Of a stretch of 64,000 nucleotides of DNA, positions 3,374-33,867 are shown piece by piece. The position numbers and the translations under genes were made by a program. Position 1 is the first letter of the stretch; every line of letters begins with the position of its first letter. The notes under the pieces were generated by a model. It worked only from the letters and a program-made list of their open reading frames with translations, did no database searches and was not told where the DNA came from. Source of the stretch: a virus (taxonomy: Duplodnaviria > Caudoviricetes); IMG/VR virus record IMGVR_UViG_3300034079_000027, positions 6,800-70,799 of that record, one strand, 5' to 3'.

Positions 3374-3837
3374 GGAAAACGAAATCAGAGTATAACAAAA
3401 CTTGGGACGATAAAAATAGGGACAAGAAACAGACTATTGCCCAGAAATGGTATTCAATCCCAGAGAATAAAGAAAAAGCAAAAGCAGTTGCAAAGGCTCA
3501 ATATTGGGCAGACCCAGAGGCAGCTAAAAAGCGAACAATAGCGTACCAAAAGGCGCATAAAGCGAGAGTAGCTGAAAACGCTAAGATTCGCCGGGAGAGA
3601 AAGAAAAATGAAGATGCTGAAGCGTATAAAAAGCTAATGAGCGAACGGAACGCAAGGTATAGGGCAAAGGTGAGAAAAGAAAAAGGGTTGCCGGAGATTA
3701 AACCCCAGAACCCTAACCCTAACCCTAATGTAACCCCAAAACCTGTTCATGTAAGAATGACCGAAGAAGAGCGTCAGTTATCAATCTTGGCCCGGTTTGA
3801 ATCGCTTAAAGAAGTCATTAAGATGCTACGCTCATAA
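3370..3837 (+). CDS. Highly basic helical protein, probable nucleic-acid binder
   Basis: K/R-rich helical repeats like the N-termini of HNH proteins, but no HNH motif. Confidence 0.5.
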   Translation: MRKTKSEYNKTWDDKNRDKKQTIAQKWYSIPENKEKAKAVAKAQYWADPEAAKKRTIAYQKAHKARVAENAKIRRERKKNEDAEAYKKLMSERNARYRAKVRKEKGLPEIKPQNPNPNPNVTPKPVHVRMTEEERQLSILARFESLKEVIKMLRS

Positions 3838-5182
3838 CGGTCATAACTGGCATATCCCAAATTGCACGTTCTGAAGACTTCCTCATCATGATGTCTTTAG
3901 AGATATGTGCCGTGTACTTGTTAAAACTAATCTCCGTTGTGTGTCCGCTCATGCTCATGATTTCCTGCTTAGGCATACCTGAAATAAGGCAATTAGAGCA
4001 GAAAGACCGCCTACTGGTATGAGTTGTTATAAGCTTGTAGAATGGCTTAGTCTCTTCGATATTTTTGCCGCCTTTATGCTTTTCTAAGAGTATAGGCTCG
4101 TTAAACCCTGCGACACGGCCTAAAATCTTAATCTGTTCGTTGTAGGTCTTTTTAGTGATATTGTAAGGCCATGTGTCGCTCTCGTATAGATGTTTAATCA
4201 TATCGTGTGCCGGGATTCTAACTAGCCCGGTTCCCTTGTTGGAAATAGCAGAAACGACATATCTGTTTAAATCCTCACTCCATGTGATTTGCGTCTCTGG
4301 GTCGATGTTTAAAAAGTTGCCACCCCTTAACCCTGTCCAACAACCAATAATAGCCAATTTGCGGACGTTCTCTAATGAACGAACCATATCCGAAACGGAT
4401 TCCTTGTATTGGTTATCAGTCCAACCGGGTACGCCGTCTTTCTTGCCGCTATATTTGATAAAATCCTGCTTAGGGTTCCCAGAGGCCGTTATGCGCATAT
4501 TAAAGAGTTTTAAGAGTTGTTTTTCGTTCAGATACACATTGAATGCTTCCCGTCTTTTTTTCTTGTCAAAACGCAGATAATCGAGCCGTGTGTTAATCCC
4601 ATCATCGGTCGCTTTGTCTAATATCCGTTTAAGGTTGCTGAACATCTTTGCAATGTGGTTATCCCCTGAGTCTAGGGTGTCCTGCATATAGGTTAAAAAA
4701 TCCTCGTTAAACTTCCGGTCTATCTGTTCAAAGGTTAACTTAGGTCTGAATGTTTTAAGCATCCTAACGGTCGTCCTGAAGCTTGCCCAGTCCTTATTGC
4801 CTACCTTGCCTTTGTTGGCTTCCTTAAACGCAACAAACCTCTCGGCAAAGGTGAAAAACGGCGTACTGGTCGCTTTGGGTTCCGCTTTCTTGTTCGCAAG
4901 TTTCCGGGGTTTTAGCTTCTCGTTGATAAGTTGCGTGAATAGGTCGTTGTTGAGGTCGAACGGATTGTTCTCGTCGATCACATCGTTAGCCGCTTGACGA
5001 ATACTTAAAAGTTTTTTATCTATCGCAGGATTGGTGCAACTGGCTGCCTTGCCTCCAGTGAAAGAATTAGGGTCTTCAATGGTAATACCGGGGAAGAACA
5101 CTAACACATATTGCTTCCCATTGTATTGCTTTCTAAACCTCACTCTAACAGAGCCTCTGTCTAAAAGTAAATCAATTGCCAT
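3818..5182 (-). CDS. int: Tyrosine recombinase / phage integrase with SAM-like core-binding domain
   Basis: Catalytic set TGLRG, HTSRRSF, SGHT..FNKY; start moved to MAIDLL (5182) because a perfect TATATTTG -7 box lies at 5206-5213. Confidence 0.93.
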   Translation of the reverse strand: MAIDLLLDRGSVRVRFRKQYNGKQYVLVFFPGITIEDPNSFTGGKAASCTNPAIDKKLLSIRQAANDVIDENNPFDLNNDLFTQLINEKLKPRKLANKKAEPKATSTPFFTFAERFVAFKEANKGKVGNKDWASFRTTVRMLKTFRPKLTFEQIDRKFNEDFLTYMQDTLDSGDNHIAKMFSNLKRILDKATDDGINTRLDYLRFDKKKRREAFNVYLNEKQLLKLFNMRITASGNPKQDFIKYSGKKDGVPGWTDNQYKESVSDMVRSLENVRKLAIIGCWTGLRGGNFLNIDPETQITWSEDLNRYVVSAISNKGTGLVRIPAHDMIKHLYESDTWPYNITKKTYNEQIKILGRVAGFNEPILLEKHKGGKNIEETKPFYKLITTHTSRRSFCSNCLISGMPKQEIMSMSGHTTEISFNKYTAHISKDIMMRKSSERAIWDMPVMTVMSVAS

Positions 5183-5205
5183 GATCGTAAATTTTAATGT
5201 TGATA

Positions 5206-5213
5206 CAAATATA
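5206..5213 (-). promoter_or_regulatory. Bacteroidota sigma-A -7 element for int
   Basis: TATATTTG matches TAnnTTTG, 24 nt upstream of the int ATG. Confidence 0.7.
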
Positions 5214-5218
5214 ACTCT

Positions 5219-5472
5219 TTCGACCAACTTTCGACCAACTATATTGAAATTTCTTGCAATATGTGTTTGTTGGCTTATTTTCAAACAGTTTCAAAAATGT
5301 TCATAAAATGATAATACATAGCATATTAGTGTCAAAATATATCAAAAGGAGAGTTACACATATTGCCACCGCCAGACCCCAGCTGGGTCACACTTTCAAA
5401 CATTTCAAACCCTTGCAGCACTAGGCTTGCAGGGGTTTTTTGTTTGGTCATTCGACCAACTTTTCGACCAAC
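5219..5472. repeat. Candidate attP: TTCGACCAAC arm repeats flanking a tRNA-3'-end-like core and hairpin
   Basis: TTCGACCAAC at 5219, 5230, 5451, 5463; core GACCCCAGCTGGGTCAC 5375-5391; hairpin with T-run 5407-5441. Confidence 0.7.
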
Positions 5473-18061: not shown

Positions 18062-21000
18062 ATGGCAGAAACTACACCTTTAACCGCACCCGTTGTACCA
18101 ACCACGCCAGAAACGCCATTTGTAAATAGTTATAAAATTGATGGCAAGTACTATGATGTACCGACGACTGACGACTCGCTTTTTCAGGCCAATATGGACA
18201 TGTCTAAAGCGGAGAAGGTTTATGGGTTTATGCAGGATGGGAAAAAATATCGTGTACCTGAAGCCGACTTAAAAGTGTTTCAGGCCAACATGCCAAAAGC
18301 AAAACCTTTTCAAAATTACAATTTCTCAGCGGTAGGGGCAGACTTCCCCACAGATCAAGCAAAACCCCAAGAAGAAGAAGGTTCGTTTTTTGGAAATCTG
18401 GGGCATGATTTTATGACCGGGATTAAAAAGTCGGGCTATGAAATTGGAAGAGCGGTAGAAGACCAGTCGTTAATGATTAACGACATGTTTAAATCTATCT
18501 CCGACAATCCCGCTTGGCAAAATTACTGGAATAAGGAAGAAGCCCGACTCAATGAAAATATTGCAGGATTAAAAGACTGGGATAAAACCATTGGGGATGC
18601 CAAGGGTGGAGTAGGTGGATTTATAGGAGGTATGCTTCCTATGGTAGGTTTAGCCGCAGCAGCTATTGTAACCAAAAGCCCCACCGTGGCTATGGGTGTT
18701 ACTGACCTATTTGCTGAAATGGGTTACGGCGGTGGTATTGATGCCTACGATAAATTTAAGGCAGAAACCGGAGGAAGTGTTGATCCTGCAACAAGAACCG
18801 GAGCGGGATTATTATATGGGGCTGCAATGACATTACCTATTGCAGGAACAGTGGGCAAAATGATGCCAAAAGGCATATTACAAAAGTCCATTAAAACGAC
18901 ATTAGACGCAAACCCTCAATTTGTAGAAGTCGCCGGGAAGAAAGTTTTTGAGCAGTTTTTAAAAGAGCAGCCGACACTTGCCCGGAATTTAATGAATAAA
19001 GCAGTAACCGGGGCCGGACACGGTATGGCAACTATGACTGCAATGGAAATGTCGAAACTGGGAGTTGATAAATTCCTTATCGGGAAAGATGTCTCCGTAA
19101 AAGATGTAGTCAGCACGTTAGGACAGTCCGCTTTATCCGGGGCTTTCTTTGGGCTTGCGCTTGCCCCGTTCTCAGTGATGAGTCAAAACTCGACAAACCG
19201 GATGCGTCGTGAAAAAGAAGGTTCGGTAACAGTATCTTACGACCCGGAAACCGGAGAGTCGGTAGAAATCATTGCCGGGAAAGATGGAGGTTACCAAGGC
19301 TTAACCCCTTCAGGCAAATTGGTTGACTTAACCGAAGCGCACTATAAGAATGCGTTTACCATGCCAACCGAACTTTTCAACCAGACTACTAAAGAATTTC
19401 AGCAAAATAAAGCCGTTGCTCCAGATATTGAACGCCAAGCCTACGAGGGAAATATCACGAACGCCCTGACCAGACTTGGAGGCGAAAACGGCGTTGTTCA
19501 CTCGTATATCGACGATAACGGAAATACCCAGTATATTTTAGGCAGAAATAAAGACGGCCAAATTATCGCCTCCGATATTAACGGATTGGAAACAGTAATC
19601 AATCCAAAGGATGTAGAGAAAGCAAAATCAGCCGATGTAGGCACGATCCGGGATGCTTTAATGAAAAGGTATGACGAGAAAAATAACCCACCGTCAGACC
19701 CTTGGGAAGCTGTCTATCAAGAACAATTACCGCCACTCGACCCAAGACAACAAACAGAGGCCGACGCAAAGGCATACGCCCAAGAAATAGCCAATAAGGA
19801 CGATGGTATGATAACCACTGTTCAGGAAATTTCAGAAGACAATGCCACCGCCGGGAAAGTCTGGTATGTAAAAAAAGGAAACCCCGGACAATTGGATAAT
19901 GGTAGCGTTCGGGTTTTTGATGATACCGGGGAAGAGAAATTTTTAACCCGTAAGCAGCTAGCCGGAGAACCACAGGAAATGACCCAAGAGGATTTTGTCG
20001 CATTTAAGCTTCAGGAGTTCGACCAACAGCAGGCCGAGCAACAAGCTATGCAACAAAACCAGATGATTTATAACGGTAAAACCTTAACCCGGCAAGAGGG
20101 GGCGTTTCAGGATGAAGAGCAGGAGGCATGGTTTGATGAAAACAACCAACCCGTAAATGTTCCGACCGAAATTGTTCAGGCATGGGAAAAGAAAAAAGCC
20201 GGGGAACCACAGGGAGAAACCCCTAATATCGTTACCCGCATCTATAACGGTAAAGAATATCAGACTACTAAAAACCCAGACGGAAGTCATACACTTCCCG
20301 ATCAAATGGGATTACCTGATATACAGAAATTAAGGTCGGACGTTGATATTGAAACCAATGGACAAGCAACAGTTATTGAGACTCCGGTGGAAGGTCAAGA
20401 CCCGACTCAGCCGATGTTTACAGCGTCGATTGTTCCGGTACAAAATTTAACCGAAGAACAGAAAAATCAGTGGATGGAAGACCGCTTGATTAATAACCCG
20501 GACGTAGCCGCCAAAGCCGAAGAAGCCGAAAAACAAAAACTGGAAGACGAAAAAAAGGCCAAAGAACCCGGTTATACTTACGAGGGTGAAGACATAAGCC
20601 CGGAAGAAGCCGAAGCCATTATCAACCTTGCAGGAAAAAGTAAGGACAAATCCGTTATGCAAGGGTTGGAATACCACAACGATCCAAAACTGGATAAGTT
20701 GATGGAACACCATTTCCCTAAACCAAAACCAAGCTATACTAAAGGTAAAGATAAACTCACCGCTATTGAGGCCCGTGTATCTATACGCATGGCTAAAACT
20801 CCGACCGACCTCAACCAGATTAAGATTGAAAACGACGAAGAGTTGCAGGCTGTTTGGAATGAAAAAGCCAAAGCCTTAACCCCTAAAACGGTAAACTTTT
20901 CAGAGCCGGAAGGTGAAAAAGTTCCCGAAACTGAGCCGGAAAACGCTGATAATCCGTTTAGTGTATTATTTAACGACGCAGAAAATCAACAAAAAACAGA

Positions 21001-24000
21001 ACTAGACAATGAAAAACCTAGCGACGAACAACCAGTACCAGAAGTACCAGAAGGAGGAACAACCGAACAAAAAACTGAAACCGGGACAAAGCCGGACGAA
21101 ACTGAAAATGAGCCGGAAGGAACAGAAAAAGAAGTTTTAAAAACAGAAGCTTCCCAATACCTTGATTGGCCTGATTATACCATCATTCAGAAAGGAACGG
21201 AAAAGGTTGTCTCTTATTTCGGTACAGAAAAAGAGCCGTTTATCGTTTTGCTTTCTGGTAAAATGCCGGGGAAAAATGGTGCGCAAGTATTTAAAGTATG
21301 GAGCCGGATTAAAGAAATACAAGGTTCAGTAGACTGGGGCAGAATAAGTATAAAAGAGCCGGAGTATGAGCGGCTTTCTAAAGAACTAGAGGAAAAATTA
21401 AACCCAAAGGAAACCGAATTAAGCAAAAACAATCAGCCAGACAGTAAGTTACCCGATAATTCCGGTTCTGAGTTAAGCAAAGAAACCCCGGAACAAGTTC
21501 AACGCAAACACCTGAACGCTATTCAGGATGAGTTCGGGGAAGCAGCAAGAAGTCTCGCAAAGAATTTTGTTGAAAAAAGCGGCATAGAAAACCCCAACTT
21601 CAACAGGATTATTGAAACTGCACGACAAATTTTAAAGCTCGAAAAAGTAGGCAGTACTTATGAAGGTGCAGCCGCTATATCTGAGGCAATGCAATACGAG
21701 TTCGGTTATGTGGACAATTTTGAAGACCTACGCAATGCTATAAATAAAGGTGGGTATGCCAAGAATAAACCCTCGATTGATCGGATGTTGGAGGTAGGGG
21801 TAAAAGTGCCGCAGGATATTTTAGATATGAATACTCCCCAAACCCCGCTCGATAAAATAACCGCAGAGGGCAAAAAGAAGGTAGCCGAAAAGAAGGAAGC
21901 AAACGGGGATGTAAAATTAAAATCAGAACCATACTCGACGCTCGATATAGACCATGAAACGCCGAGTGTCGTAGTGGCAAAGCAGATTAAAGCAGACTTA
22001 CTGCCTTTCTCAAAAGCACTGGCTAAAGCGTTAGGATTTGATCATGGTGACGATGGTCACGGGAAAGTCCAATATTCAAGCGTAAATCTACCTCCTGCGG
22101 GTGGTGAGGCTACAATGCACTTCTGGAACCCTGAAAACCCAGACTGGGGGATTATGGTTCGACTTGCTTATGAGCCAGAGTATGACCGTGGTGGTGGATA
22201 TAACAATTATAAGATAAAAAATCCTTTCTGGAGGGTAGTTCGCAGAAAAGATAAAACCGGGGGATTAATGAATAATTATTTTCCGGGAGATATATCTGCG
22301 TCTGATTTAGCTAAAAGTATGCTGCCTATTTATGGGAAAGCCGCAGGAAGGTTTGGTCTTCCAAAGGAGGATAAACCCCAAGTTCAAGAGCCACCAAAGC
22401 CCGAACTGAGCGAAGTGGAAAAGCGCAAAGCAGAACTTATCGCCAAACTTAAAAACCTACTTCCACCGGATAACACAGCAAGCGAACCCCCCGCTGAATA
22501 CGGAGGGAAACCGCAACTCAACTTCGAGATTATGAACCTTGGGTCTGAACTGGCAATGATCCATATTCAGACCGGGAAAATAAAGTTTGCAGATTTCGCC
22601 AAAGAAATGGTGAAAGATTTGGGAAACCCGGTTAAACCTTACCTGAAATACTTTTACAACGCAGCCCGTAACCTTCCGGGAATGGATGAGTTCGACGACC
22701 AAATGGACGACGTTCGGGAAGTGAATAAGATGGATATTGAGCAAGCGTTGGCTCCAGTGGAAATAAATCATCAGAAGGAAGCCGAACAAGCGATTGACAA
22801 AAACCAAGCCCCGGCACAAAAACCGGATGAGAATAATTTACTCGGACAACTCGATAAGCTTAACCCGACCAAAGCCCCAATGAATACAACCAAATACACA
22901 GGTTTAACCATTGAGACGGTATCGGAAAAAGCGTTCGTTGTTAAAGGAAATACCAAACCATTTGCCGACGATTTTAAAACAGCCGGGGCAATCTGGATGA
23001 ATAAACATCAAGGTTGGATGTTCCCTAAGTCGAGACAGTCGGAAGTTGAGTTAAAATTTGGAATAGCCGGATCAACAGAAATAGCATACCCGCCAAATAA
23101 AAAGAAACTGGTGAGTAGTATCATGGCTAAATTAGCTGAAGGGATAAAAATTACCAACGGGCCTGCTTTAACCGCAATGGCAACAGAAGCCGGATTACAG
23201 GCAGGAGTTGATTACAAAAGCGTGAAAGAGCTGTATGATATTGCCGGATCAGCCCTTAACCAATATATTTTATCTAAACCAGAGTTTAACCCGGCAGGGA
23301 AAATCCCGATGGAGGTTAAAGCGATAGTAGAAAAACTGAACGCCCTTCAGGATTTACTCCCAACAGAAACCCAACGTTCGGCAGAACAGGTAGAATTACA
23401 GCAATATTCAACACCTCCTGCGTTTGCGTTTGTAGTTAACTGGATCGCACAGATAGACCGATTTGAAAATGTATTGGAACCGTCGGCAGGAGAAGGAAAT
23501 ATAGCTGTTTTTGCCCGTTTAACAGGCGCAAATGTAATCGCCAATGAAATTGACGACAATCGTTTAATCCTACTTAGAATGCTTGGATTACGGGCCGTAA
23601 AGAGCGATGCAAAGCATGTACATTTAAACCCTGCTTTTAGAAACGAACGGATTTCAACTGTTGTTATGAATCCCCCTTTCTCTAAAGATATTGCTCTCGG
23701 CAATAAGATGGATTTACATGCAGCCGAAAAACATATCGAATCGGCTCTGGCTAAACTTTTGCCCGGAGGCCGCTTAGTTGCAATCGTAGGGCGTGGAATG
23801 AGCATGAACAGCCCTACCCATAAAGCATGGTGGGATAAGATATTACAGAACGCTACTGTCCGTGCCAATATCGCTATCAGCGGCGATGCCTATAAGAAAA
23901 AAGGTACTTCGTTTGATAACCGATTGTTGGTTATCGACAAGCTCGGTGCGAGCGTTGAAGCCCCATTTACCGCAGAAGTTGAGAACTACGATGAACTTGT

Positions 24001-27000
24001 CGATGTATTAAAACATATTGTACCAAAAAACCGTATATTTAAACCAAGTATATTAACCGATGAAAACACTACTCGAAACGGTCAAGGACAAGCTGATAAT
24101 GCTAACGGGGGATTATCTGGAACCAATGGTGGCAAGCCTAATGATGGTCGTACTGGATCAGGTGAAAATCAAGGAGCCGGGAATGACACAAATGGAGGAC
24201 ACGATAACTTATCTCCACAGAAAGACAGACCGGGAAATTCTGGAGTATCTAATGGAAACTCAGGACGATCAGGCGGAGGCAGAGGCTCTTCTGGAGGAAA
24301 GACTTCAACCACTAACAACGGCGGAAGAAATAGCGGAGGTTCTGCTTCTGGACATCCTGTGGGACGCAATGAAGGAACATCAGGAGACTCCAATACTGTA
24401 AGTAAATTTGAACCAAGCAAACCGCTTGAAGTAGAATATGTAGATCGCACACTTGATAATTCAGAGCAGTTAGGTTACGACAGGTACACCCCTGAAATCA
24501 AAGTAGTCGGATCACAACCCCACCCAACACTATTAGTTGAAAGTACTGCGATGGCCTCGGTTAATTTACCGAAAAGCAAATACAGGCCGCATCTTTCTCC
24601 CACTGTAATTAAATCCGGGGCATTAAGCGATGCTCAACTGGAAGATGTTATTCTCGCCGGAGGATCACATGTCCAAGTATTACCGTCAGGTTACCGAAGA
24701 GGTTATTTCTTAGGCGGGGGGACAGGATATGGCAAAGGGCGAACAGTTGCCGCTATCATCATGGACAACTTCAATCAGGGAAGAAAAAAAGCAGTCTGGC
24801 TATCGGCTAATGAAAAAGCACACTACGAAAGTATAAACTTTTGGGATGCCGTAGGTGGGGATAAAAAACTCGCCTTTTCACAAAAGAACCCGCACAATCG
24901 CATAGCACAAAAAGAAGGCTTATTATTAACTACCTACGGAACATTAAGGACAAAGTTCGACCCTCGCAAAAGCTACGACGATGATGTAAATTTCTGGAAG
25001 GGAAAACCAGAAAATAGGATGCAGCAAATTGCACAATGGTTGGGGCCAAATTTTGACGGCGTAATAATCTTCGACGAAAGCCACAACATGTCGAACGCAG
25101 AAGCCCAAAAGGGCGACAGGGGCATGAAGAAAGCCTCTTTAATGGCGTTGGCAGGAATTGAATTGCAAAAACTCTTACCGGATGCACGTATTGTTTACGC
25201 CTCAGCTACCGGAGCCACAGAAGTAAGCAACCTAGTTTATGCACAACGCTTGGGGCTATGGGGTGATGGAACGCCTTTTAACGACTCAAAGGACTTCGTT
25301 CAAGCCGTACAGAACGCAGGGGTCGCAGGGATGGAAATAATCTCGAAAGACTTAAAATCTATGGGTTTATACACCGCCAAACAACTCTCGTTTGAAGGAG
25401 TAGCCTATGAAACCCTAGAACACAAATTGCTACCCATGCAGACAGAACTCTATAACCAAGTTGCAGATGCTTGGCAAATGGTGTTACACCACATGGACGA
25501 AGCCATTGACCTTAACAATACCAGTTCACAAGCGAAAGCGGCAGCAAAAAGCCAATTCTGGGGAGCGCACCAACGCTTTTTTGGTCAGATTATAATGACC
25601 ATGCAGATGCCAACCGTTATAAGGGACATTGAAAAATGTCTTTCAGAAGATAAATCGGTTGTAATACAATTAGTTTCGACCAATGAGGCCGCTACAAACA
25701 GGGCGTTAGCTGAAGCAAAGGCAAACTTAGCTGAAGGCGAGGAACTTGATTACGAGGATTTGGATTTATCGCCAAAAGGCACACTCTTAGAGTACCTTAG
25801 AAATAGTTTTCCTATCCATGCTTTTGAAGAGGTGGAAGACGATAACGGCAATGTCGTTAAACGATTAATGCGTGATGATTTAGGACAACCAATAGTAAAC
25901 CCGGCAGCACTGGCATTAAGGGATAAACTACTGGCAAAACTCGACAAAGAGCTTACTTTACCGGAAAGCCCTCTCGATATATTAATCAACCATTTTGGAG
26001 TGGATAATATCGCCGAAGTAACCGGGAGAACCAGACGGGTTGTAAAAGTAGAAAACGAAAAAGGAGAGTTTGTAAAAGTAGAACAAACCCGAACAAAGTC
26101 ACACGCCGCACAGGATAAGGATGATTTTATGGACGCAAAAAAGCGTATTCTCGCCTTTTCAAAATCGGGAGGAACAGGTGCATCTTATCATTCGGATTTA
26201 AGCCGTGAGAATCAACAGCAACGAGTTCACTTTGTAATTCAGACCGGGTGGAAAGCGGATGATGCGGTTCAGGGATTTGGACGGTCACACCGGAGCAACC
26301 AACGTATAGCCCCTATCTTTAAACTGGTAACCACGGATTTAAAATCGCAGAGACGTTATTTGTCCTCAGTGGCCCGAAGGTTAGATCAACTTGGAGCATT
26401 AACCAAAGGACAACGCCAGACTGGGGGACAAGGTATTTTGGACGGGTCGTTTAATCTTGAAGGACAGTACGCCAAACAAGCATTATTCCAGTTTTACAGA
26501 GCCGTAGAAGCCGGAGAAATACCCGGCGTTGATATGGAGGTTCTTGAAAACCAAATGGCTCTTAAAATATACACCGAAGATCAGGACGGGAATATGAAGT
26601 ACAACGAAAACGTGGTTTTCAATACTACGATGTTCCTGAACCGAATCATGTCGTTAAGGGTCGATTTGATGGACAGTGTATTTGATGGGTTTATGGATTT
26701 AATGGGCAAAGAAATTGACCGGGCTAAACAGCATGGCACTTTTGATGAAGGGATTCAAGTTGTTAACGCATTTAAAACAACGCTTGTAGATCAAAAGGTG
26801 ATTTACACCGACGAAAATACTGGGGGCAAAACCTACCTTACTACCATTGAATTGGAAGTTGAAAACACCCGCAAGGAGTGGGGAGATATTGAATTCAGGG
26901 CTAAGTATAAAAGCGACCAATTCAAAGGATATTATCAGGAAACTAGCTCAGAGCGGATATATGCTGTTTTTGCACAGCCGGAAATGACAGCGGACGGTAC

Positions 27001-30000
27001 ACGTAAATTAAGGACAACCCGGCAAAGTGTGGTAGCTGAATCGCAAATATCGAGTGACGACCTGAAAAACAAGTACGTTAAGATTGATAATAAAGCGATT
27101 GCCGAACGATTATGGAACGCTGATTTTGACGCTTACCCTGCCACCAGAAAAAGAGTAGATCACATTGTTAAAGGCTTAATTCTGCCAATCTGGAACCGAT
27201 TACCCAACAACATCAATGTTCGCAGATATGTTGACGAAAATGGTAACGCACACCTTGGGCGGTACTTTAATCAGCGTGATGCAGAAGAAATCCTCAATAA
27301 GTTTAAAATTACCAGTTCAAACCGATTTACCACACATCAGGCAGTAACCGCACTGGAAGACGGGGGAAAAGTAAAATTGGCTAACGGCTTTGAATTGGTG
27401 AAAACCAAGTATCAGGGATTACCTGTTTATATGATTAAAAACGTAAACTCATGGTCGGATCGTGACCGTATGAGTAGAGCCGGAGCAAATTTTGCCGTTA
27501 CCAGTGCTATGTCACAATCAGGATTTTATTATCTTCCTGCCGAAATCGCAACAGAGGGGATTGATAAAATTATTCAACTGTACAACTCCCCAATTACCAG
27601 AGTTACAGATAGTGAGGATAACGCTCAGGCTCCTGCCGAAGGAAATAATATTGCGGAGGAACCTTTAGCCGAATACAAGCGTACAAACGACCATGAAGAA
27701 AATCAAGCCCAAGAAGGTAGTTCAATCGACACCCAACTCAACTGGAGCGAAGACGTACCCTATCGTAGAAACCCAGAGTTCAGTAACAGCACAAGTGCCA
27801 GCGACCTACAATGGGAAGCCCTGTATAACCACAAACCAGACGACGGGATAACCTATGTCGAACGGCAGTTAAACGAACAAAAACACCTGACTTTTGGAGG
27901 CTCAAAGCTTTCAGGCCCGACGAAAATAACCTCGCCGTGGGACGTAGCCCATTTATTTAAAAACCTTGAATCAGCCCCATCAGAAAATGCCTTTGCTGTA
28001 CTTCACAACGAGGACGGCACATATAAGGCACTATACCTTTCAACAGGTACAAACAAAGCAACCCAAGTTGATACCAAACTTATAATTGCCGCAGCAAAAG
28101 AGTTCGGGGCTAAAAGAGTAACGTTTGTACACAATCATCCTTCAGGAAATTTACTAGCCTCTGAAGCAGATAAGGCTATTCACGGGAAATTACTACACGC
28201 CCTAGACCTCTCTGGTGTAAACCTGAATCCTTCCATTATTATTAACCTTGACTCCGGGAAGTTTGCCCAATTTACGGCAAGCGACCAAGACGAATTTAAC
28301 CATCAAGGCCGGATGAAAAACGAGGCTTTTGAAGTCAACGTGTACCAGTTTGACAGGCAGGAGCTATATATCCCATCAACAGAACGAGGAAAGGTTGTAA
28401 AATCGGGCGATGTTGCTGCATTTTTAAGTAACCAAAAAAGGGGCATCGGCAATAAAATACAAGCCTTAATCCTTGACAACGGCAATAACATTAATCGTTA
28501 CGTGTTGCTCGATGGAAATTTAACGACTGACGAATTGGCTAAAGAATTGCTTTTCGAGGTCGGGAAATACGGAGAGAAGGTTGTGCTTGCATCGAACTTT
28601 ACAATCCCGGAAATAGGAGCGATTAAAAAAGCTTTGAAACTGGTTGATGCAGACCTCGTTGATGTTCTGGAAATTAAACAGGACGACGACATTATCAACA
28701 ATTACAAAAGCTTTGCAGACGAAGGTTTGCTGTGGGATTCTGAAACCCCATACGGGAAAGATAAGCCCGGATTATGGGACTTAATGGACGATGCAAAAAG
28801 ACGGGTCGCCTATAAAAAATTCAATAACAAACCAACCGAAGTAAATGACTCAGGAGTAAAACCTGTGTTTGTTACCGACTTCCTTAAAAAAGTAACCGCC
28901 AGATACAACCGGGAACGAAAAGACCGACGGGCAATGAAGGAAGTTATTCAGGGGATGCGTGATTTTTACCAAGACAAAAACCTGCCTATCCGCCGGATGC
29001 AGGAACTTGTACAAAAACGTGGGGGCGAACTCAAAGACAATATGCAGCCTTTCCGTGACATAGCAAACTCATTTGGACGACTGGAAACCCTTCATGATAA
29101 TTTCACTGAGGATCGCATGGTTCCGATTTTAAAGACTATCGCAGAGATTGGTTATACCGGGATGGACAGAGAAGTTGTTTTGCCTTACGTTATCGCAAAA
29201 CACACCCCGGAACTTAACCAGTATATGCGCAACCGGGATTTTGAAAAGTGGAATAAAAAACACCAATCGGACTTTATAAAATGGTGGGAAACCCATCAAG
29301 AAACGACCAAAGCTCAACAGGACGAAAAATGGGCCGAACTGGAACAAAAAAAGGAAGACTACTGGAATAAGCTGCAAAAAACAGACTATGCAGGGATTAT
29401 GCCTTTAGATGTTGAGAATGGTTTTAAAGACGATCCCGACGGGCTTGCTAAGGCTATCGTACATGATTTTGAAACCGTATTGCCTCAGAATTTAATAAAT
29501 GAGCTTTGGGACAACCTAAAGGGTGCATCTTCGGATATTGTTGGGGCATGGCACAACGGGAAACAAATTACAGCAGACGAGGCCGATGAATACCGTTCAC
29601 GCTACAATTATTACGTTCCTCTCCGGGGATGGAGAGAAGGCGCAGCCCAAAGCCTTGCCTATGTCAAAGGGAAAGGATTCGGGAAGTCGCTACAACACGC
29701 TGAAGGTAGAAAATCACTCGCAGCAAACCCACTTGCTTATTTGCAGCACACCGCATTTCAGGCAATCACAGAACAGGTTACCAACGAAGTAAACACCTCT
29801 TTATATAATCTGGTGACTAGAAACTATGCAGGTAACCGGGATATTTTCAGCCTTAAAAAAGCGTATTACGTGCTAGTAGAACATGCCAACGGCGAAGAAG
29901 AGTGGGAATTAAGCGTTGATCCAATTACGGACAAGCTTGTAAAACCTGCCCCGGAGATGTTTGCTGAAGGTCGTGCAATCACAAAGCTGTACAACAGTCA

Positions 30001-31915
30001 TAAATTCCTGAGAAGCAATAGCGATGCCCGGCAGCATGAGGTCATAATTAAAGGCGATGAGGAAGATGCTGTGATTGTTTTTGAACCTCAGTACCTTCCA
30101 GTAGCTCAGGCTATGAATAAGGAGAATTTCATGTTCAAAAACCTTTTTACTGGGAACACATCCGACGCAAGACGGTGGAGCGATAACCCAATTGTCGGGG
30201 GTGAGGCTTGGTTAAATAATGCTTACAAAGCAAACATGACCTCCCGGAACCCAATTTTTTCATTCACAAATTTTATCCGTGACATTCAAGAAGCCCCTAT
30301 AACCTCATGGATTAAAGGGGAAAGCGGCATTAGTGTTATCGGAAATTTACCCTCGTCTTTCGGGGCTATTTTAAGAGGCATGAGGGGTAAGTCTGATTTA
30401 AACAACGAAATAGACAGACATTACGACAATTACAGAAAAGCGGGCGGCGTAACAGGGTACTCGCATCAGAAAGATATTGAGCAGCTCGATAAAAAATTAG
30501 AAAAACGGCTCAAAAGGATTGCACGTAAGCATACCATATCGGGTAAAACACTAAATGTTGCCACTGGGATAATCAGAGGTATTGAAGCGTGGAGTAATTT
30601 GCTCGAAAACGACACTCGTTTCGCAGTATATCTTAAATCAATAAAAGCCGGGAAAACCATAAAAGATGCGGCCTACGATGCAAGGAATTATACTGTGGAC
30701 TTTAACACAACTGGCAAGATAACCAAGTTCGTAGATGCAAACTTCGCATTCTTTAAGGTTGCTATGAACTCGCTCCAGAAGAACGGGCATCTGTTTAGGA
30801 ATTACACCAAAAGAGCGTTAGAGGCATCCGCAGCGTTGATCGTGTTAGGAATCCTAGAGGCGTTAATGAATGATAAAATTAAGGGGGAAACCGAAGACAG
30901 CGATTATTATAACCTGAACGAATATGTACGGGATAATTACTTAATCCTGCCTGATATTTACCACTTGGCTACCCATGGCAATAAGGGCGATAAATACTGG
31001 CGTTTCCCATTACCTCAATTTTGGAGATCATTTAAAAGCCTTGGCACAATTATCTACGATGTAGTTAATGGTAAAACAACCGCAGGAAGAGCGACAGGAA
31101 GAATGTTATCGAGTTTTGGTAATTCTCTGTTCCCAATTGATCTTGGTGGTCTTTACGTGGATGGTAAGTTTAACATTAGCCCAATCGTACCAACAATTGC
31201 CCGACCAATTTCAGAGGTGTTGACTAATACGAACTACATGGGTTACCGGATTAGGAAGGAGCCGTTTACTAAAAAACAAGAGGAATTACTTGCCAACTCT
31301 GCTTTAGGGAAAGACAACGTAAACCAATTCGTTAAATTTCTTACCGACGGCCTTTACAGGAGTGTAGGCGGTGGGGATAATGAGAATAAGTTTCGATCTG
31401 TAAAAATAGATGGACAAGTTTATCCTAAACCGATCAGAGCCGCATGGTTAACCGACTGGAACCCATCGAACATAGAGCATGTATTTACCAGTTATTTAGG
31501 GGGTACGGGAAAAGGCGTTGCAGATTTAGCGACCACGCTTGTACAAGTTGCAACACCGGGAGCGGAAATTGATTTTAATAACATCCCGTTCGTGAACGCA
31601 TTTATACGGAAAACACCACCTGCCAAATGGAAAATCATTGAAGACTACTATGACCTTCAGGATGAGATATTCGCCGTACCTGCATTAGAACAATCCTATT
31701 TCAACAAAGGGGACTACGAAAAATACGTCGATCTGAAGAGCGATCCATACCTGAACGAATACGCCGCAGTAGTAAACGGCATGGATAAGGCCCTTACAAA
31801 AATAATGAAGGGCATGGACTTTAAAACCGCCGAAGGCAGCGACGAAGTACTCGATTTCATGAAACAAACAATAGATCAAGTTAAAGGCATTAAACAGAAA
31901 TACAAACGACCATGA
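18062..31915 (+). CDS. 4617-aa DarB-like polyvalent virion protein: N6-adenine MTase + strawberry-notch-type SF2 helicase + RadC/JAB + LPD38-like C-terminus
   Basis: VLEPSAGEG and MNPPF; GTGYGKGRT, IIFDESH, YASATGA, QGFGRSHRSNQ; HNHPSGNLLASEAD; ARNYTVDFNTTG..FFKVAMNS. Confidence 0.85.
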   Translation: MAETTPLTAPVVPTTPETPFVNSYKIDGKYYDVPTTDDSLFQANMDMSKAEKVYGFMQDGKKYRVPEADLKVFQANMPKAKPFQNYNFSAVGADFPTDQAKPQEEEGSFFGNLGHDFMTGIKKSGYEIGRAVEDQSLMINDMFKSISDNPAWQNYWNKEEARLNENIAGLKDWDKTIGDAKGGVGGFIGGMLPMVGLAAAAIVTKSPTVAMGVTDLFAEMGYGGGIDAYDKFKAETGGSVDPATRTGAGLLYGAAMTLPIAGTVGKMMPKGILQKSIKTTLDANPQFVEVAGKKVFEQFLKEQPTLARNLMNKAVTGAGHGMATMTAMEMSKLGVDKFLIGKDVSVKDVVSTLGQSALSGAFFGLALAPFSVMSQNSTNRMRREKEGSVTVSYDPETGESVEIIAGKDGGYQGLTPSGKLVDLTEAHYKNAFTMPTELFNQTTKEFQQNKAVAPDIERQAYEGNITNALTRLGGENGVVHSYIDDNGNTQYILGRNKDGQIIASDINGLETVINPKDVEKAKSADVGTIRDALMKRYDEKNNPPSDPWEAVYQEQLPPLDPRQQTEADAKAYAQEIANKDDGMITTVQEISEDNATAGKVWYVKKGNPGQLDNGSVRVFDDTGEEKFLTRKQLAGEPQEMTQEDFVAFKLQEFDQQQAEQQAMQQNQMIYNGKTLTRQEGAFQDEEQEAWFDENNQPVNVPTEIVQAWEKKKAGEPQGETPNIVTRIYNGKEYQTTKNPDGSHTLPDQMGLPDIQKLRSDVDIETNGQATVIETPVEGQDPTQPMFTASIVPVQNLTEEQKNQWMEDRLINNPDVAAKAEEAEKQKLEDEKKAKEPGYTYEGEDISPEEAEAIINLAGKSKDKSVMQGLEYHNDPKLDKLMEHHFPKPKPSYTKGKDKLTAIEARVSIRMAKTPTDLNQIKIENDEELQAVWNEKAKALTPKTVNFSEPEGEKVPETEPENADNPFSVLFNDAENQQKTELDNEKPSDEQPVPEVPEGGTTEQKTETGTKPDETENEPEGTEKEVLKTEASQYLDWPDYTIIQKGTEKVVSYFGTEKEPFIVLLSGKMPGKNGAQVFKVWSRIKEIQGSVDWGRISIKEPEYERLSKELEEKLNPKETELSKNNQPDSKLPDNSGSELSKETPEQVQRKHLNAIQDEFGEAARSLAKNFVEKSGIENPNFNRIIETARQILKLEKVGSTYEGAAAISEAMQYEFGYVDNFEDLRNAINKGGYAKNKPSIDRMLEVGVKVPQDILDMNTPQTPLDKITAEGKKKVAEKKEANGDVKLKSEPYSTLDIDHETPSVVVAKQIKADLLPFSKALAKALGFDHGDDGHGKVQYSSVNLPPAGGEATMHFWNPENPDWGIMVRLAYEPEYDRGGGYNNYKIKNPFWRVVRRKDKTGGLMNNYFPGDISASDLAKSMLPIYGKAAGRFGLPKEDKPQVQEPPKPELSEVEKRKAELIAKLKNLLPPDNTASEPPAEYGGKPQLNFEIMNLGSELAMIHIQTGKIKFADFAKEMVKDLGNPVKPYLKYFYNAARNLPGMDEFDDQMDDVREVNKMDIEQALAPVEINHQKEAEQAIDKNQAPAQKPDENNLLGQLDKLNPTKAPMNTTKYTGLTIETVSEKAFVVKGNTKPFADDFKTAGAIWMNKHQGWMFPKSRQSEVELKFGIAGSTEIAYPPNKKKLVSSIMAKLAEGIKITNGPALTAMATEAGLQAGVDYKSVKELYDIAGSALNQYILSKPEFNPAGKIPMEVKAIVEKLNALQDLLPTETQRSAEQVELQQYSTPPAFAFVVNWIAQIDRFENVLEPSAGEGNIAVFARLTGANVIANEIDDNRLILLRMLGLRAVKSDAKHVHLNPAFRNERISTVVMNPPFSKDIALGNKMDLHAAEKHIESALAKLLPGGRLVAIVGRGMSMNSPTHKAWWDKILQNATVRANIAISGDAYKKKGTSFDNRLLVIDKLGASVEAPFTAEVENYDELVDVLKHIVPKNRIFKPSILTDENTTRNGQGQADNANGGLSGTNGGKPNDGRTGSGENQGAGNDTNGGHDNLSPQKDRPGNSGVSNGNSGRSGGGRGSSGGKTSTTNNGGRNSGGSASGHPVGRNEGTSGDSNTVSKFEPSKPLEVEYVDRTLDNSEQLGYDRYTPEIKVVGSQPHPTLLVESTAMASVNLPKSKYRPHLSPTVIKSGALSDAQLEDVILAGGSHVQVLPSGYRRGYFLGGGTGYGKGRTVAAIIMDNFNQGRKKAVWLSANEKAHYESINFWDAVGGDKKLAFSQKNPHNRIAQKEGLLLTTYGTLRTKFDPRKSYDDDVNFWKGKPENRMQQIAQWLGPNFDGVIIFDESHNMSNAEAQKGDRGMKKASLMALAGIELQKLLPDARIVYASATGATEVSNLVYAQRLGLWGDGTPFNDSKDFVQAVQNAGVAGMEIISKDLKSMGLYTAKQLSFEGVAYETLEHKLLPMQTELYNQVADAWQMVLHHMDEAIDLNNTSSQAKAAAKSQFWGAHQRFFGQIIMTMQMPTVIRDIEKCLSEDKSVVIQLVSTNEAATNRALAEAKANLAEGEELDYEDLDLSPKGTLLEYLRNSFPIHAFEEVEDDNGNVVKRLMRDDLGQPIVNPAALALRDKLLAKLDKELTLPESPLDILINHFGVDNIAEVTGRTRRVVKVENEKGEFVKVEQTRTKSHAAQDKDDFMDAKKRILAFSKSGGTGASYHSDLSRENQQQRVHFVIQTGWKADDAVQGFGRSHRSNQRIAPIFKLVTTDLKSQRRYLSSVARRLDQLGALTKGQRQTGGQGILDGSFNLEGQYAKQALFQFYRAVEAGEIPGVDMEVLENQMALKIYTEDQDGNMKYNENVVFNTTMFLNRIMSLRVDLMDSVFDGFMDLMGKEIDRAKQHGTFDEGIQVVNAFKTTLVDQKVIYTDENTGGKTYLTTIELEVENTRKEWGDIEFRAKYKSDQFKGYYQETSSERIYAVFAQPEMTADGTRKLRTTRQSVVAESQISSDDLKNKYVKIDNKAIAERLWNADFDAYPATRKRVDHIVKGLILPIWNRLPNNINVRRYVDENGNAHLGRYFNQRDAEEILNKFKITSSNRFTTHQAVTALEDGGKVKLANGFELVKTKYQGLPVYMIKNVNSWSDRDRMSRAGANFAVTSAMSQSGFYYLPAEIATEGIDKIIQLYNSPITRVTDSEDNAQAPAEGNNIAEEPLAEYKRTNDHEENQAQEGSSIDTQLNWSEDVPYRRNPEFSNSTSASDLQWEALYNHKPDDGITYVERQLNEQKHLTFGGSKLSGPTKITSPWDVAHLFKNLESAPSENAFAVLHNEDGTYKALYLSTGTNKATQVDTKLIIAAAKEFGAKRVTFVHNHPSGNLLASEADKAIHGKLLHALDLSGVNLNPSIIINLDSGKFAQFTASDQDEFNHQGRMKNEAFEVNVYQFDRQELYIPSTERGKVVKSGDVAAFLSNQKRGIGNKIQALILDNGNNINRYVLLDGNLTTDELAKELLFEVGKYGEKVVLASNFTIPEIGAIKKALKLVDADLVDVLEIKQDDDIINNYKSFADEGLLWDSETPYGKDKPGLWDLMDDAKRRVAYKKFNNKPTEVNDSGVKPVFVTDFLKKVTARYNRERKDRRAMKEVIQGMRDFYQDKNLPIRRMQELVQKRGGELKDNMQPFRDIANSFGRLETLHDNFTEDRMVPILKTIAEIGYTGMDREVVLPYVIAKHTPELNQYMRNRDFEKWNKKHQSDFIKWWETHQETTKAQQDEKWAELEQKKEDYWNKLQKTDYAGIMPLDVENGFKDDPDGLAKAIVHDFETVLPQNLINELWDNLKGASSDIVGAWHNGKQITADEADEYRSRYNYYVPLRGWREGAAQSLAYVKGKGFGKSLQHAEGRKSLAANPLAYLQHTAFQAITEQVTNEVNTSLYNLVTRNYAGNRDIFSLKKAYYVLVEHANGEEEWELSVDPITDKLVKPAPEMFAEGRAITKLYNSHKFLRSNSDARQHEVIIKGDEEDAVIVFEPQYLPVAQAMNKENFMFKNLFTGNTSDARRWSDNPIVGGEAWLNNAYKANMTSRNPIFSFTNFIRDIQEAPITSWIKGESGISVIGNLPSSFGAILRGMRGKSDLNNEIDRHYDNYRKAGGVTGYSHQKDIEQLDKKLEKRLKRIARKHTISGKTLNVATGIIRGIEAWSNLLENDTRFAVYLKSIKAGKTIKDAAYDARNYTVDFNTTGKITKFVDANFAFFKVAMNSLQKNGHLFRNYTKRALEASAALIVLGILEALMNDKIKGETEDSDYYNLNEYVRDNYLILPDIYHLATHGNKGDKYWRFPLPQFWRSFKSLGTIIYDVVNGKTTAGRATGRMLSSFGNSLFPIDLGGLYVDGKFNISPIVPTIARPISEVLTNTNYMGYRIRKEPFTKKQEELLANSALGKDNVNQFVKFLTDGLYRSVGGGDNENKFRSVKIDGQVYPKPIRAAWLTDWNPSNIEHVFTSYLGGTGKGVADLATTLVQVATPGAEIDFNNIPFVNAFIRKTPPAKWKIIEDYYDLQDEIFAVPALEQSYFNKGDYEKYVDLKSDPYLNEYAAVVNGMDKALTKIMKGMDFKTAEGSDEVLDFMKQTIDQVKGIKQKYKRP
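24060..24401 (+). CDS. Candidate nested (+1 frame) acidic helical protein inside the giant gene
   Basis: 113 open codons with amphipathic helical pattern, coinciding with the G/N/S linker of the host frame. Confidence 0.5.
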   Translation: MKTLLETVKDKLIMLTGDYLEPMVASLMMVVLDQVKIKEPGMTQMEDTITYLHRKTDREILEYLMETQDDQAEAEALLEERLQPLTTAEEIAEVLLLDILWDAMKEHQETPIL

Positions 31916-33867
31916 ACGACCTTGCAACCATTAGACCCTTAACCCTTTCAAAGATGGGGTTAAAGAAGGAGGTAGAGCCTCCTATACCAGAGGATACATT
32001 GGAACTGCGGAAACTTTTCATTTATCAGCAAATGTGGGATAACCTCCACGAGTTTAGGATGGAACGGAAACGTTCTGCCCGGTACTTAGAAGGTAAACAA
32101 TGGGAAGATTTTGTAACCGACCGTAACGGGAACCAAATCAAAGAAGACCAGTATATCCTCGATCAAGGACAATTACCGTTAAAACAGAACCGGATTAAAA
32201 GTACCGTCAGAACATTGGTAGGCCAATTCAGGGCCGACAACCACAAATCGGTTGTTGTAAGCCGTACTCCAGACAGTGCCAAAGAATCGGAAATGTTGAG
32301 TAATGGCCTCCAGTGCGCTTTACATTCGGTAAACCACGTTAAAGAAATCGACTCACGCTTGTATGAGGAATTCTTACTATCGGGGCTTCCGGTACAACGA
32401 ATCTCTTATGAATACATAAACGACCTTAAACGCCGGGATTTAATCATACGCAACTGCCACCCGAATACCATGTTTTTCAATGGTAACCTAATGGACGTTA
32501 GGGGCTTTGACATTGATTGTATTGGTCGCTTTCTGGATTTGTCGTTTGATAAAATGATCGTGAACTTTGGTACAAGCCCAGAGCGTAAACGGCAACTGCG
32601 TGAAATCTACGGTTCTGTAAACAACAGGTATTCAAACCTCGTTGCATTATCGAGCGATAACATTTACAACAATAATTTCTTTGTACCCCAAGACCTGACT
32701 AAATGCCGGGTTATTGAAGTCTGGGAAGAACGGCTCGTAGAAGTTATGGAGGTTCACGATATGATGGACGGAACTAGAGATATAACCGACTGGACGCAAA
32801 AACATTTGGATGCTTACAACAAGTATCGCATTAATAAGTTTGCTGAAATCGGCATACCGGAAGAGGAAGTCCCGCTCTGTATTGGTGAGCTTATGACTGT
32901 TCAGAAATGGTTCTACACTTACTACACGCCTTGGGGTCATGTTTTAAGGGAAGGGGAAAGCCCTTTCTGGCACGGATCGCACCCGTTTGTAATCACACCG
33001 TACCCATTAATTGACGGCAAGGTTCAGGGCTTAGTCCCAGACTTGTTAGATGCACAACGGCAGATGAACCGATTGTTGATCCTTCAAAACATGATCCTTT
33101 CTTCCTCAGCTAAAAACACGATCATCCTAGACAAAAACAGTCTGGATGGTAAAAGCCCGGAAGAAGTCGATGCAGAATACCGGAAAATCGGTGGTGTTTT
33201 AGTATTGGATTTGGATAAAGGCCGGACACACCCGCCTATCGAGGTAAAAGGTAGTATCGGGAATTTTGGTATCAATGAAATGATCCAAATGTATGTAACC
33301 ATGCTGCAAGACGTAAGCGGGGTACAACCTGCTATGCAAGGCCATGCGGCCCTTTCGGGAACCTCAGGGGCTTTGTACGCCCAACAGGTAGAAAACTCTA
33401 CCATGAACTCGAAAGACATGCAGGATGCTTTTATGAACTTCCTTTTGATGAGGGATATGAAAGCGTTAAAGACCATTCAGCAATACTACGACAAGCCAGT
33501 CATGTTAGCCGTTTCAGGATCGGCCTTTGCTGATACCGCCCACAAGTACGACCCGGCAATGGTATCTAAGGTTGAATTTGATATGGTTATCGGACAATCG
33601 AACGACTCCCCAATTTACAGAGCCGCTATCGAAGATACTTTGAACCAGTTTGTAATGAAGGGAATTATTGATTTGAGAATGTTCCTCGAAAACACAACTA
33701 TGCCGTTCAAACAGAATCTACTGGAAAGCCTCAGAAAGAGGGAAGAACAAGCGATGATGAACCCACAGGCCGCCGTTGCCGGATTAACCGAAGACGTTAA
33801 AAATGCAGGTGTTCAGGGAAATCAACAATTGGTAGATAATACTTACAACCAAATGAAGGCTGCTTAG
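31912..33867 (+). CDS. Portal protein (P22-like)
   Basis: 651 aa; ARYLEGKQW, LKQNRIKSTVRTLVG, EGESPFWHGSHPF..GLVPDLLDAQRQMN. Confidence 0.85.
   Translation: MNDLATIRPLTLSKMGLKKEVEPPIPEDTLELRKLFIYQQMWDNLHEFRMERKRSARYLEGKQWEDFVTDRNGNQIKEDQYILDQGQLPLKQNRIKSTVRTLVGQFRADNHKSVVVSRTPDSAKESEMLSNGLQCALHSVNHVKEIDSRLYEEFLLSGLPVQRISYEYINDLKRRDLIIRNCHPNTMFFNGNLMDVRGFDIDCIGRFLDLSFDKMIVNFGTSPERKRQLREIYGSVNNRYSNLVALSSDNIYNNNFFVPQDLTKCRVIEVWEERLVEVMEVHDMMDGTRDITDWTQKHLDAYNKYRINKFAEIGIPEEEVPLCIGELMTVQKWFYTYYTPWGHVLREGESPFWHGSHPFVITPYPLIDGKVQGLVPDLLDAQRQMNRLLILQNMILSSSAKNTIILDKNSLDGKSPEEVDAEYRKIGGVLVLDLDKGRTHPPIEVKGSIGNFGINEMIQMYVTMLQDVSGVQPAMQGHAALSGTSGALYAQQVENSTMNSKDMQDAFMNFLLMRDMKALKTIQQYYDKPVMLAVSGSAFADTAHKYDPAMVSKVEFDMVIGQSNDSPIYRAAIEDTLNQFVMKGIIDLRMFLENTTMPFKQNLLESLRKREEQAMMNPQAAVAGLTEDVKNAGVQGNQQLVDNTYNQMKAA

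Follow-up and report, generated by a model that had tools for sequence, protein, structure and literature searches.

The genes B, K and E of phiX174 are embedded out of frame within other phage genes, and in hepatitis B virus (HBV) the DNA of the polymerase spacer overlaps preS/S. Long same-strand overlaps are thought to be rare in large double-stranded DNA phages, and gene callers forbid them. Rz1 lies wholly inside Rz, in the +1 frame, in lambda and Bcep22-like phages (PMC9144972). Among large phage proteins, DarB of phage P1 is the archetype of the DNA-methylase/helicase dyad in polyvalent anti-restriction proteins, the DarB type being defined by an EcoKI/TaqI-like methyltransferase (MTase) with an NPP(Y/F) motif, a C-terminal superfamily 2 (SF2) helicase of the SWI2/SNF2 or Strawberry-notch (Sbno) kind, and LPD domains (PMC5512222); a DarB-like protein of 4515 aa, gp69 of phage JC1, is virion-associated by proteomics (PMC9144972). 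The window studied here covers 64,000 nucleotides, the larger part of the IMG/VR phage record IMGVR_UViG_3300034079_000027 (70.8 kb, flanked by direct terminal repeats), and contains a DarB-like giant gene in which the linker between MTase and helicase also reads, in the +1 frame, as a complete open reading frame (ORF) at 24060–24401. We put at about 0.9 the probability that this ORF is a real, unannotated nested gene in a dual-coding stretch, with a small folded acidic protein as its predicted product. The nested-gene reading is strongly supported because homologues, resampling, the variability of codon positions, an ATG and a Shine-Dalgarno (SD) sequence kept in relatives, and a confidently predicted fold all point to it.

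Two frames in one linker

The nested ORF runs on the + strand from its ATG through 113 codons to a TAA stop, and its frame is +1 relative to the 4617-codon ORF 18062..31915 [(24060 − 18062) mod 3 = 1]; this is where a first-pass annotation, made from the letters of the window, had placed it, and the peptide ends quoted there match. It occupies the entire +1 stop-free span: a TAA at 24054–24056 is followed by CCG and then by the ATG. With 114 codons it tops the alternative-frame ORFs inside the giant gene, the runner-up having 90. The main frame beneath it is, as first described, a low-complexity linker (residues 2000–2114; G32 N18 S16 T10 D7 R7, with only 2 Leu and 3 Val), and the acidity claimed for the small product is correct to the residue (25 D/E against 10 K/R; isoelectric point, pI, 4.28). 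The E/D/L-rich look of the product is partly due to the codon skew of the linker, since the favored codons GGA (20/32 Gly), TCT (8/16 Ser) and ACT (6/10 Thr), which make up 34%, 15% and 20% of the respective codons gene-wide, read as E/D and L in the small frame.

The small product is a member of a protein family. In a phmmer search of 1.84 billion cluster representatives, three proteins of 111–117 aa align with it near end-to-end (E = 1.3e-12, 3.4e-6 and 2.0e-4), and a profile search added ten further family proteins of 124–173 aa (E = 1e-21 to 1e-28). The family includes free-standing genes of 111–136 aa in Bacteroidales and other metagenome-assembled genomes, and these free-standing members begin at a methionine matching the nested start. 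At seven free-standing loci the frame equivalent to that of the giant gene has 0, 0, 1, 1, 2, 5 or 8 stops, no start codon and no MTase or helicase on either side, and the small ORF is unbroken, its ends conserved. The nearest relative of the window copy (41% identity) lies on a 509-bp contig, L005, whose G/N/S frame has three stops and whose small ORF is whole. As for the giant protein itself, 681 homologues were found, the closest being 50–55% identical in the flanking domains; the DNA of three of these was obtained (L002, L003 and L004), and all three have a complete +1 ORF across the linker (133, 137 and 115 aa), with products that align to the window product and to the free-standing genes.

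The sequence of the giant protein does not account for this similarity, because the observed scores lie far above those of a resampling null. For this comparison a hidden Markov model (HMM) was built from free-standing members only, and the linker was resampled synonymously 1000 times with the giant protein unchanged. The window +1 translation scores 73.7 bits, against −0.9 ± 2.3 after resampling (maximum 11.9) and 3.2 ± 4.8 (maximum 25.4) when synonymous codons are shuffled within the linker. The three close relatives behave in the same way: 182 bits against 17 ± 11 for L002, 142 against 6 ± 7 for L003 and 22.9 against 1.2 ± 2 for L004. Under a stricter HMM, restricted to members with a verified stand-alone context, the window still reaches 50.0 bits against −1.5 ± 2.0. 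The joint chance of an open +1 frame in all four close loci is ~2e-5 (0.23 × 0.06 × 0.11 × 0.016). Reverse resampling, in which the small protein is kept, gives on average 5.7–15 stops in the giant frame where none is observed (P <= 0.001 at each locus; for the window 5.7 ± 1.9, P(0) = 0.001), which indicates that the giant frame is likewise selected to stay open and that the stretch is dual-coding.

Codon positions tell the two frames apart. In an alignment guided by the giant protein, and thus biased in favor of the giant frame, codon periodicity is ordinary in the MTase and in the helicase, the wobble position being the most variable (0.54–0.68). In the linker the pattern is shifted by +1: the giant-frame wobble is the least variable position and the first position the most, with values for positions 1/2/3 of 0.64/0.50/0.48 for the window against L002 and 0.54/0.39/0.28 for L002 against L003. 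When the small frame guides the alignment, every pair, nested or free, has position 2 less variable than position 1 and position 1 less than position 3; between the window and L005 the small-frame positions differ at 0.35/0.34/0.64. Selection in this stretch thus acts mainly on the small frame. Which frame relatives conserve had been proposed at the outset as a check, and the outcome is that the +1 frame is open and the more constrained of the two, with the giant frame open too. Pairwise nucleotide alignments of very distant linkers were also tried and set aside; they carry no codon-position signal (mean 0.42/0.41/0.41) and are unreliable at 60–65% identity in GC-rich, low-complexity DNA, so the values given above come from well-aligned pairs.

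More distant homologues were reached through a profile of the flanking domains, which was required for the purpose, as IMG/VR searches with a single sequence or with earlier profiles returned no relatives. It retrieved 80 IMG/VR loci, 39 of them non-redundant and with the full MTase-linker-helicase module (35–43% identity, GC 0.37–0.69). Stop codons in the +1 frame of homologous linkers, which the first-pass annotation regarded as evidence against a gene, are scarce in these 39 loci, which are not phylogenetically independent: there are 11 in all, where 53.7 ± 6.1 would be expected and 2000 resamplings never gave fewer than 36, and 30 of the 39 linkers are stop-free, against 13.6 ± 2.4 expected (maximum 21). 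Single stops mostly fall at the extreme end of the linker, and even relatives with 9–22 L/I/V/M residues in the linker remain without +1 stops. The +1 ORFs are 105–145 aa long, and their products share the motifs P-L-N-Q-x-A, L-Q-L-x-x-W-G-L-E and W-x-P-E-x-x-M, as well as a long C-terminal helix. Their profile matches that of the window family with an hhalign probability of 90.8% (E = 1.2e-6, 112 colinear columns).

The start signals are conserved as well. The ATG falls on a giant-frame R-(N/D)-(D/E/A/G)-R motif and is made by AAT or GAT followed by G in 32/32 loci, with a joint probability of 1e-13.5 under the codon usage of each locus; it holds also where T-ending codons are rare. A GGAG/GAGG core lies 6–10 nt 5′ of the ATG in 26/38 loci, compared with 9–12% at control positions. 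The giant-frame residues over this core vary (EG, GG, EV, ED, EP, KE, RE, LG) and the core is kept, which indicates a signal at the nucleotide level.

Linker length goes with the presence of the ORF. The linker measures 90–135 aa in all close and most distant homologues, and a plasmid of the cultured strain Methylomonas sp. LL1, with a linker of 101 aa, has an ORF of 114 aa (L098:1004-1348) behind a GGAGG. Where the linker is short, homologues have neither a +1 ORF nor an SD sequence or junction ATG, as seen in Agrobacterium pAt (57 aa), pNL1 (23 aa), a Dinoroseobacter plasmid (26 aa) and L067/L068 (26 aa). From these comparisons, long linker and nested gene occur together, and the nested arrangement is ancient and widespread in the phage MTase-helicase dyad. 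One distant homologue differs: L058 (IMG/VR, GC 0.42) is the only one to combine a long linker (143 aa) with three +1 stops and no Met, and here the nested gene has probably been lost and the tether retained.

AlphaFold2 predicts a compact six-helix fold for the window product, with a predicted local distance difference test (pLDDT) of 87.5 and a predicted template modelling score (pTM) of 0.82 from 19 sequences, so that the pLDDT check proposed in the first-pass annotation came out in favor of the gene. For the distant member L023 the values are 84.0 and 0.77 (35 sequences), and the helix order is identical in both models. No known family or fold for the nested protein emerged from pfam-type, sequence and fold libraries: scans of 19 + 35 family members with Pfam, PHROGs and PADLOC, a PDB sequence-profile search and an ESM Atlas search with the family, and Foldseek of the model against PDB and BFVD gave no usable match, and the best Z in an exhaustive VIA-align search with either model was 3.8, well within noise for helical proteins. 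Among cultured phages, blastn and tblastn (the latter against 50,697 phage records) found no match to the nested ORF and, for the host gene, matches to the MTase domain only. No called protein among 5.8 billion matched the profile of the distant nested products, and the nested ORFs are unannotated in all plasmid records inspected. We attribute the invisibility of a conserved protein family to gene callers, which disallow such overlaps.

Points against a nested gene and rival explanations

Several observations weigh against this reading. Judged from the window alone, the nested ORF is not significant (P ~0.2). A +1 stop requires an L/I/V/M codon with A or G as the next base, and a linker poor in hydrophobic residues, this one having just five such codons, is therefore nearly stop-proof: 33% of synonymous resamplings of the giant protein contain a +1 stop-free run of at least 114 codons and 20% an ATG ORF of at least 113, as the first-pass annotation had cautioned when it called the scarcity of stops automatic. 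The base at −3 is C, as also pointed out there, and the leader of the window copy has no SD sequence. Small-frame synonymous codon usage is atypical for the phage (−0.165, against 0.056 ± 0.036 for real genes), even below that of ordinary non-coding +1 frames; a small frame bearing the burden of dual coding would be expected to look this way, but an ordinary gene would not. The window copy, otherwise intact across the full family length, lacks the C-terminal FPN tail of most members. Some free-standing copies may be recent escapes and not long-independent witnesses, as their ghost of the giant frame is nearly stop-free (see below). The SD core shares bases with a conserved giant-frame motif, and constraint on the protein could account for part of its conservation; AlphaFold confidence on helical sequences is supportive of a natural fold without being proof of one. 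Action of the small protein in restriction/anti-restriction conflict, finally, is inferred from gene neighborhood and the identity of the host gene, which are its whole basis. One alternative built on such points is that the ORF and its helical look are artefacts of a G/N/S linker poor in hydrophobic residues, never translated, an Asn or Asp codon followed by Gly readily supplying the ATG. This we consider extremely unlikely. The ORF is improbable only by comparison, and its significance therefore comes wholly from the comparative evidence: resampled linkers never approach the observed score against the free-standing HMM, linkers much richer in L/I/V/M stay free of +1 stops, codon periodicity tracks the small frame, ATG and SD are conserved, and a confident fold is predicted in two distant members.

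Translation without a separate gene is another matter. By a programmed +1 frameshift, stimulated by an SD-like GGAGG as in prfB, the N-terminal part of the giant protein through the MTase would be fused to the helical domain, and no separate small protein would be made. The GGAGG/AGGGGG core does lie just upstream of the frame junction, beside rare ATA/AGA codons, in lineages that use SD sequences, and internal initiation within a translated ORF is generally inefficient. A frameshift has no need of the ATG that is invariant in spite of codon bias, however, nor would it account for free-standing members that start at exactly the nested Met; the window and its Bacteroidota-type relatives have neither the SD-like element nor a slippery context, and the spacing between SD and ATG is the optimum for initiation, compared with 3 nt in prfB. 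We therefore hold a frameshift to be very unlikely. Equally hard to credit, and extremely improbable in our estimate, is that the window copy is an unexpressed relic of a real family, or that the conservation reflects an RNA structure or a DNA site and not a protein. The missing SD, the want of a clear promoter and the absent FPN tail would suit a relic, but the copy is intact, and its differences from L005 fall mostly on small-frame third positions. Against a nucleic-acid element stand the signatures of a protein: three-base periodicity, conservative replacements, a frame that stays open over GC 37–69% and a compact predicted fold. A nested gene thus remains the explanation that we prefer.

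Setting, origin and possible function

The features discussed are collected in Table 1. Pfam matches in the giant protein comprise MTS (residues 1800–1916), AAA_34, Helicase_C_4, ResIII, RadC (3289–3395) and LPD38 (4279–4511), and the NPPF motif of the MTase occurs as VVMNPPFS. By this domain content the host gene falls within the DarB-like MTase-helicase polyvalent definition. The portal gene also adjoins the giant gene in L002 and L003, and this synteny appears to place the giant gene in the head-morphogenesis block. DNA of the window stretch is also present in several sediment metagenomes; all the sequencing runs found to contain it are DNA runs, and no RNA run does. Elsewhere in the window, a tyrosine-integrase-like gene on the − strand (3818–5284; Phage_int_SAM_5 and a weak Phage_integrase match) hints at a temperate lifestyle.

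Table 1. Features of the nested locus in the window, and free-standing family members at other loci
Feature	Position	Strand	Evidence and remarks
Nested small gene (predicted)	24060..24401	+	ORF/translation, family matches, HMM score, AlphaFold2; acidic, predicted six-helix globule
Giant host gene	18062..31915	+	4617-aa DarB-like "large polyvalent protein": N6-adenine MTase, Strawberry-notch-type SF2 helicase, RadC/JAB, LPD38
Giant-frame linker	24059..24403	+	Residues 2000–2114, G/N/S/T/D low-complexity, between MTase and helicase; stop-free
MTase domain of giant protein	23354..24058	+	About residues 1765–1999, NPPF motif; conserved block in the flanking-domain alignment; ends just 5′ of the nested start codon
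Helicase module of giant protein	24518..26758	+	Pfam AAA_34 residues 2153–2466, Helicase_C_4 residues 2637–2899
A+T-rich leader of nested ATG	24030..24059	+	70% A+T, no SD sequence; holds TATATTTA and the +1 stop TAA
P22-like portal gene	31912..33867	+	Pfam P22_portal E = 8e-40; directly 3′ of giant gene
Free-standing copy	L006:3208-3543		Stand-alone gene, no giant ORF around
Free-standing copy	L007:8001-8405		On 1.57-Mb Bacteroidales contig
Free-standing copy	L008:8001-8408		Prolixibacteraceae
Free-standing copies	L010, L012, L017		Stand-alone genes, no giant ORF around
Free-standing copy	L015		On 350-kb contig

Other ORFs overlapping the giant gene were considered as genes and rejected. The antisense ORFs 23347..23868 (173 aa) and 22457..22819 (120 aa), both on the − strand, are conserved in relatives, the former at 56% identity over ~170 aa (E = 1e-42) and the latter at 41–43% over ~55 aa. 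Both are probably shadow ORFs, because they lie opposite the strongly conserved MTase region in the frame that shares its wobble positions. The +1 ORF 29520..29792 and the antisense ORF 24169..24450 showed no conservation.

Translation of the predicted product would start at the ATG behind the A+T-rich leader. The leader was correctly described at first as A+T-rich (30 nt, compared with 56% A+T for the whole gene); the element TATATTTA reported in it is present at 24034–24041, but the spacing to the ATG is 18 nt and not 19. Bacteroidota make little use of SD sequences, and a leader without one fits the Bacteroidota affinity of the window's subfamily. Upstream of the small ORF start, at −26/−25, a TAnnTTTA occurs in the window, in L002 (nested) and in L015 and L017 (free-standing). 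The Bacteroides −7 promoter consensus is TAnnTTTG, one mismatch away, which hints, and does no more than hint, at a candidate −7 element.

As to origin, the giant-frame reading of the linker has typical codon usage (0.047). Codon usage thus favors the giant frame as the native one, while present-day selection is strongest on the small frame. The first description of the ORF as a hidden gene holds in the sense of a real nested coding gene; on the small frame as the newcomer, which the word "overprinted" implies, the two lines point in different directions. In a small tree, nested and free-standing copies interleave (local supports 0.81–0.96), and at three free-standing loci the ghost of the giant frame (L007:7979-8233, L008:7994-8488 and L012:3952-4482) has 0–1 stops, against about 10–12 expected, and is still polyvalent-linker-like, with the motifs NENTSG, GIQRGDTGQP, LFGQ and VRGNE. 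Interleaving and near-stop-free ghosts together suggest that the free-standing copies arose by repeated escape from phage genes.

The neighborhood of the free-standing copies gives some indication of function. At three loci (L006, L007 and L017) they adjoin type I restriction-modification genes; elsewhere the neighbors are a McrB-EVE protein (L012), GmrSD with an Eco57I-type enzyme (L008) and a NucS-like nuclease (L010). The nested copies keep a fixed place, flanked by an EcoKI-class methylase and an SF2 translocase, and this connects the small protein with the anti-restriction dyad. On this basis, we give roughly even odds to a role as partner or modulator of type-I-like enzymes (EcoKI-class MTase with SF2 translocase). 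None of the functions proposed in the first-pass annotation, namely a packaging chaperone, an inhibitor of the MTase/helicase or a DNA mimic, could be shown. For a simple mimic, the acidity of the window product is the sole fitting feature: pI is 4.1–4.6 in the window product and close members, but several distant members have a pI of 6–8. No likeness to Ocr or ArdA was found in PDB sequence, Foldseek or VIA-align searches, a missing match that leaves family membership possible. Simple mimic and packaging chaperone both seem unlikely to us. Complex prediction of the small protein with the MTase part and with the helicase N-lobe scored 0.00, below the mark and run without controls, and speaks neither for nor against binding.

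A mechanism can be sketched from these elements. The giant frame would supply a disordered tether joining the adenine methylase of a DarB-like polyvalent virion protein to its Strawberry-notch-type helicase, and the +1 frame a complete, independently initiated gene for an acidic, soluble six-helix protein. Ribosomes would start at the 24060 ATG, other lineages using the GGAGG core upstream, and the template might be the mRNA of the giant gene or an internal transcript. The target of such a modulator might be the phage's own dyad or the type I restriction-modification complex of the host, and nesting would secure co-inheritance and co-expression with the dyad.

Comparison with known systems

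In the literature searched, nothing was found that describes nesting within DarB-like or polyvalent genes, although coverage was incomplete and absence is unproven. A close parallel is tnpV (PF14198) in Bacillota. At 6/13 loci (L105, L106, L107, L112, L115 and L117) tnpV sits within a −1 frame that exceeds 860 codons and extends to the ends of the locus; like the gene described here it is small (~110–125 aa), lies one base out of frame in a polyvalent MTase/helicase linker, and occurs in nested and free-standing forms. The two are not the same family: the PF14198 HMM has no match in the nested product, in the family members or in the six-frame translation of the whole genome at E <= 10, and hhalign of both family alignments against 13 TnpV proteins gave a probability of 0.3%. 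Linker nesting is thus apparently used by at least two unrelated small protein families.

Joined together, these strands would make the ~100–140-residue "linker" of the dyad the shadow of a nested gene, ancient and close to universal, whose product would have an as yet unseen six-helix fold and would modulate type-I-like methylase/translocase enzymes; the free copies in Bacteroidales defence islands would be captured versions of it. As a whole we regard this as doubtful. Were it true, captured copies would let hosts or mobile elements control restriction or neutralise the anti-restriction dyad of a phage, and, with the unrelated tnpV, linker nesting would amount to a general layer of coding in polyvalent proteins that has been overlooked. 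Its location is the commonest functional core of polyvalent anti-defence proteins, and models of how DarB-like proteins overcome restriction may be missing the nested gene as a component. This gene also offers a natural dual-coding system, a folded protein set against a disordered tether, in which nested, free-standing and ORF-less states can be compared. More generally, the disordered linkers of giant phage and plasmid genes merit six-frame inspection, since "linker" motifs may be shadows of another frame.

Compared with the P1 DarB dyad, the host gene likewise couples an NPPF-bearing EcoKI/TaqI-like MTase to a downstream SF2 helicase, carries LPD38 and RadC, and is portal-adjacent. Its helicase is of the Strawberry-notch type, and neither the linker nor a nested gene is mentioned in the account of that dyad (PMC5512222). 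With HBV it shares the principle that the disordered spacer of an enzyme uses the same DNA as a folded protein of another frame, the spacer tolerating the demands of that frame. HBV, however, infects animals and has a tiny genome that is pressed for space, whereas the phage genome here, at 71 kb, has no evident reason to be compressed.

Rz1/Rz and the embedded genes of phiX174 are the nearest phage precedents: in each, a complete same-strand small gene with its own start lies within a larger phage gene and both frames are intact, and by analogy the two products may act together here also. The differences are nevertheless clear. The host here is a multi-domain gene of 13.9 kb, in which only a disordered inter-domain linker is shared with the nested gene; the small frame is the better conserved of the two, and its family is also found free-standing in bacteria. 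Finally, unlike the lipoprotein and lysis proteins of those phages, the product is predicted to be a soluble, acidic, helical globule.

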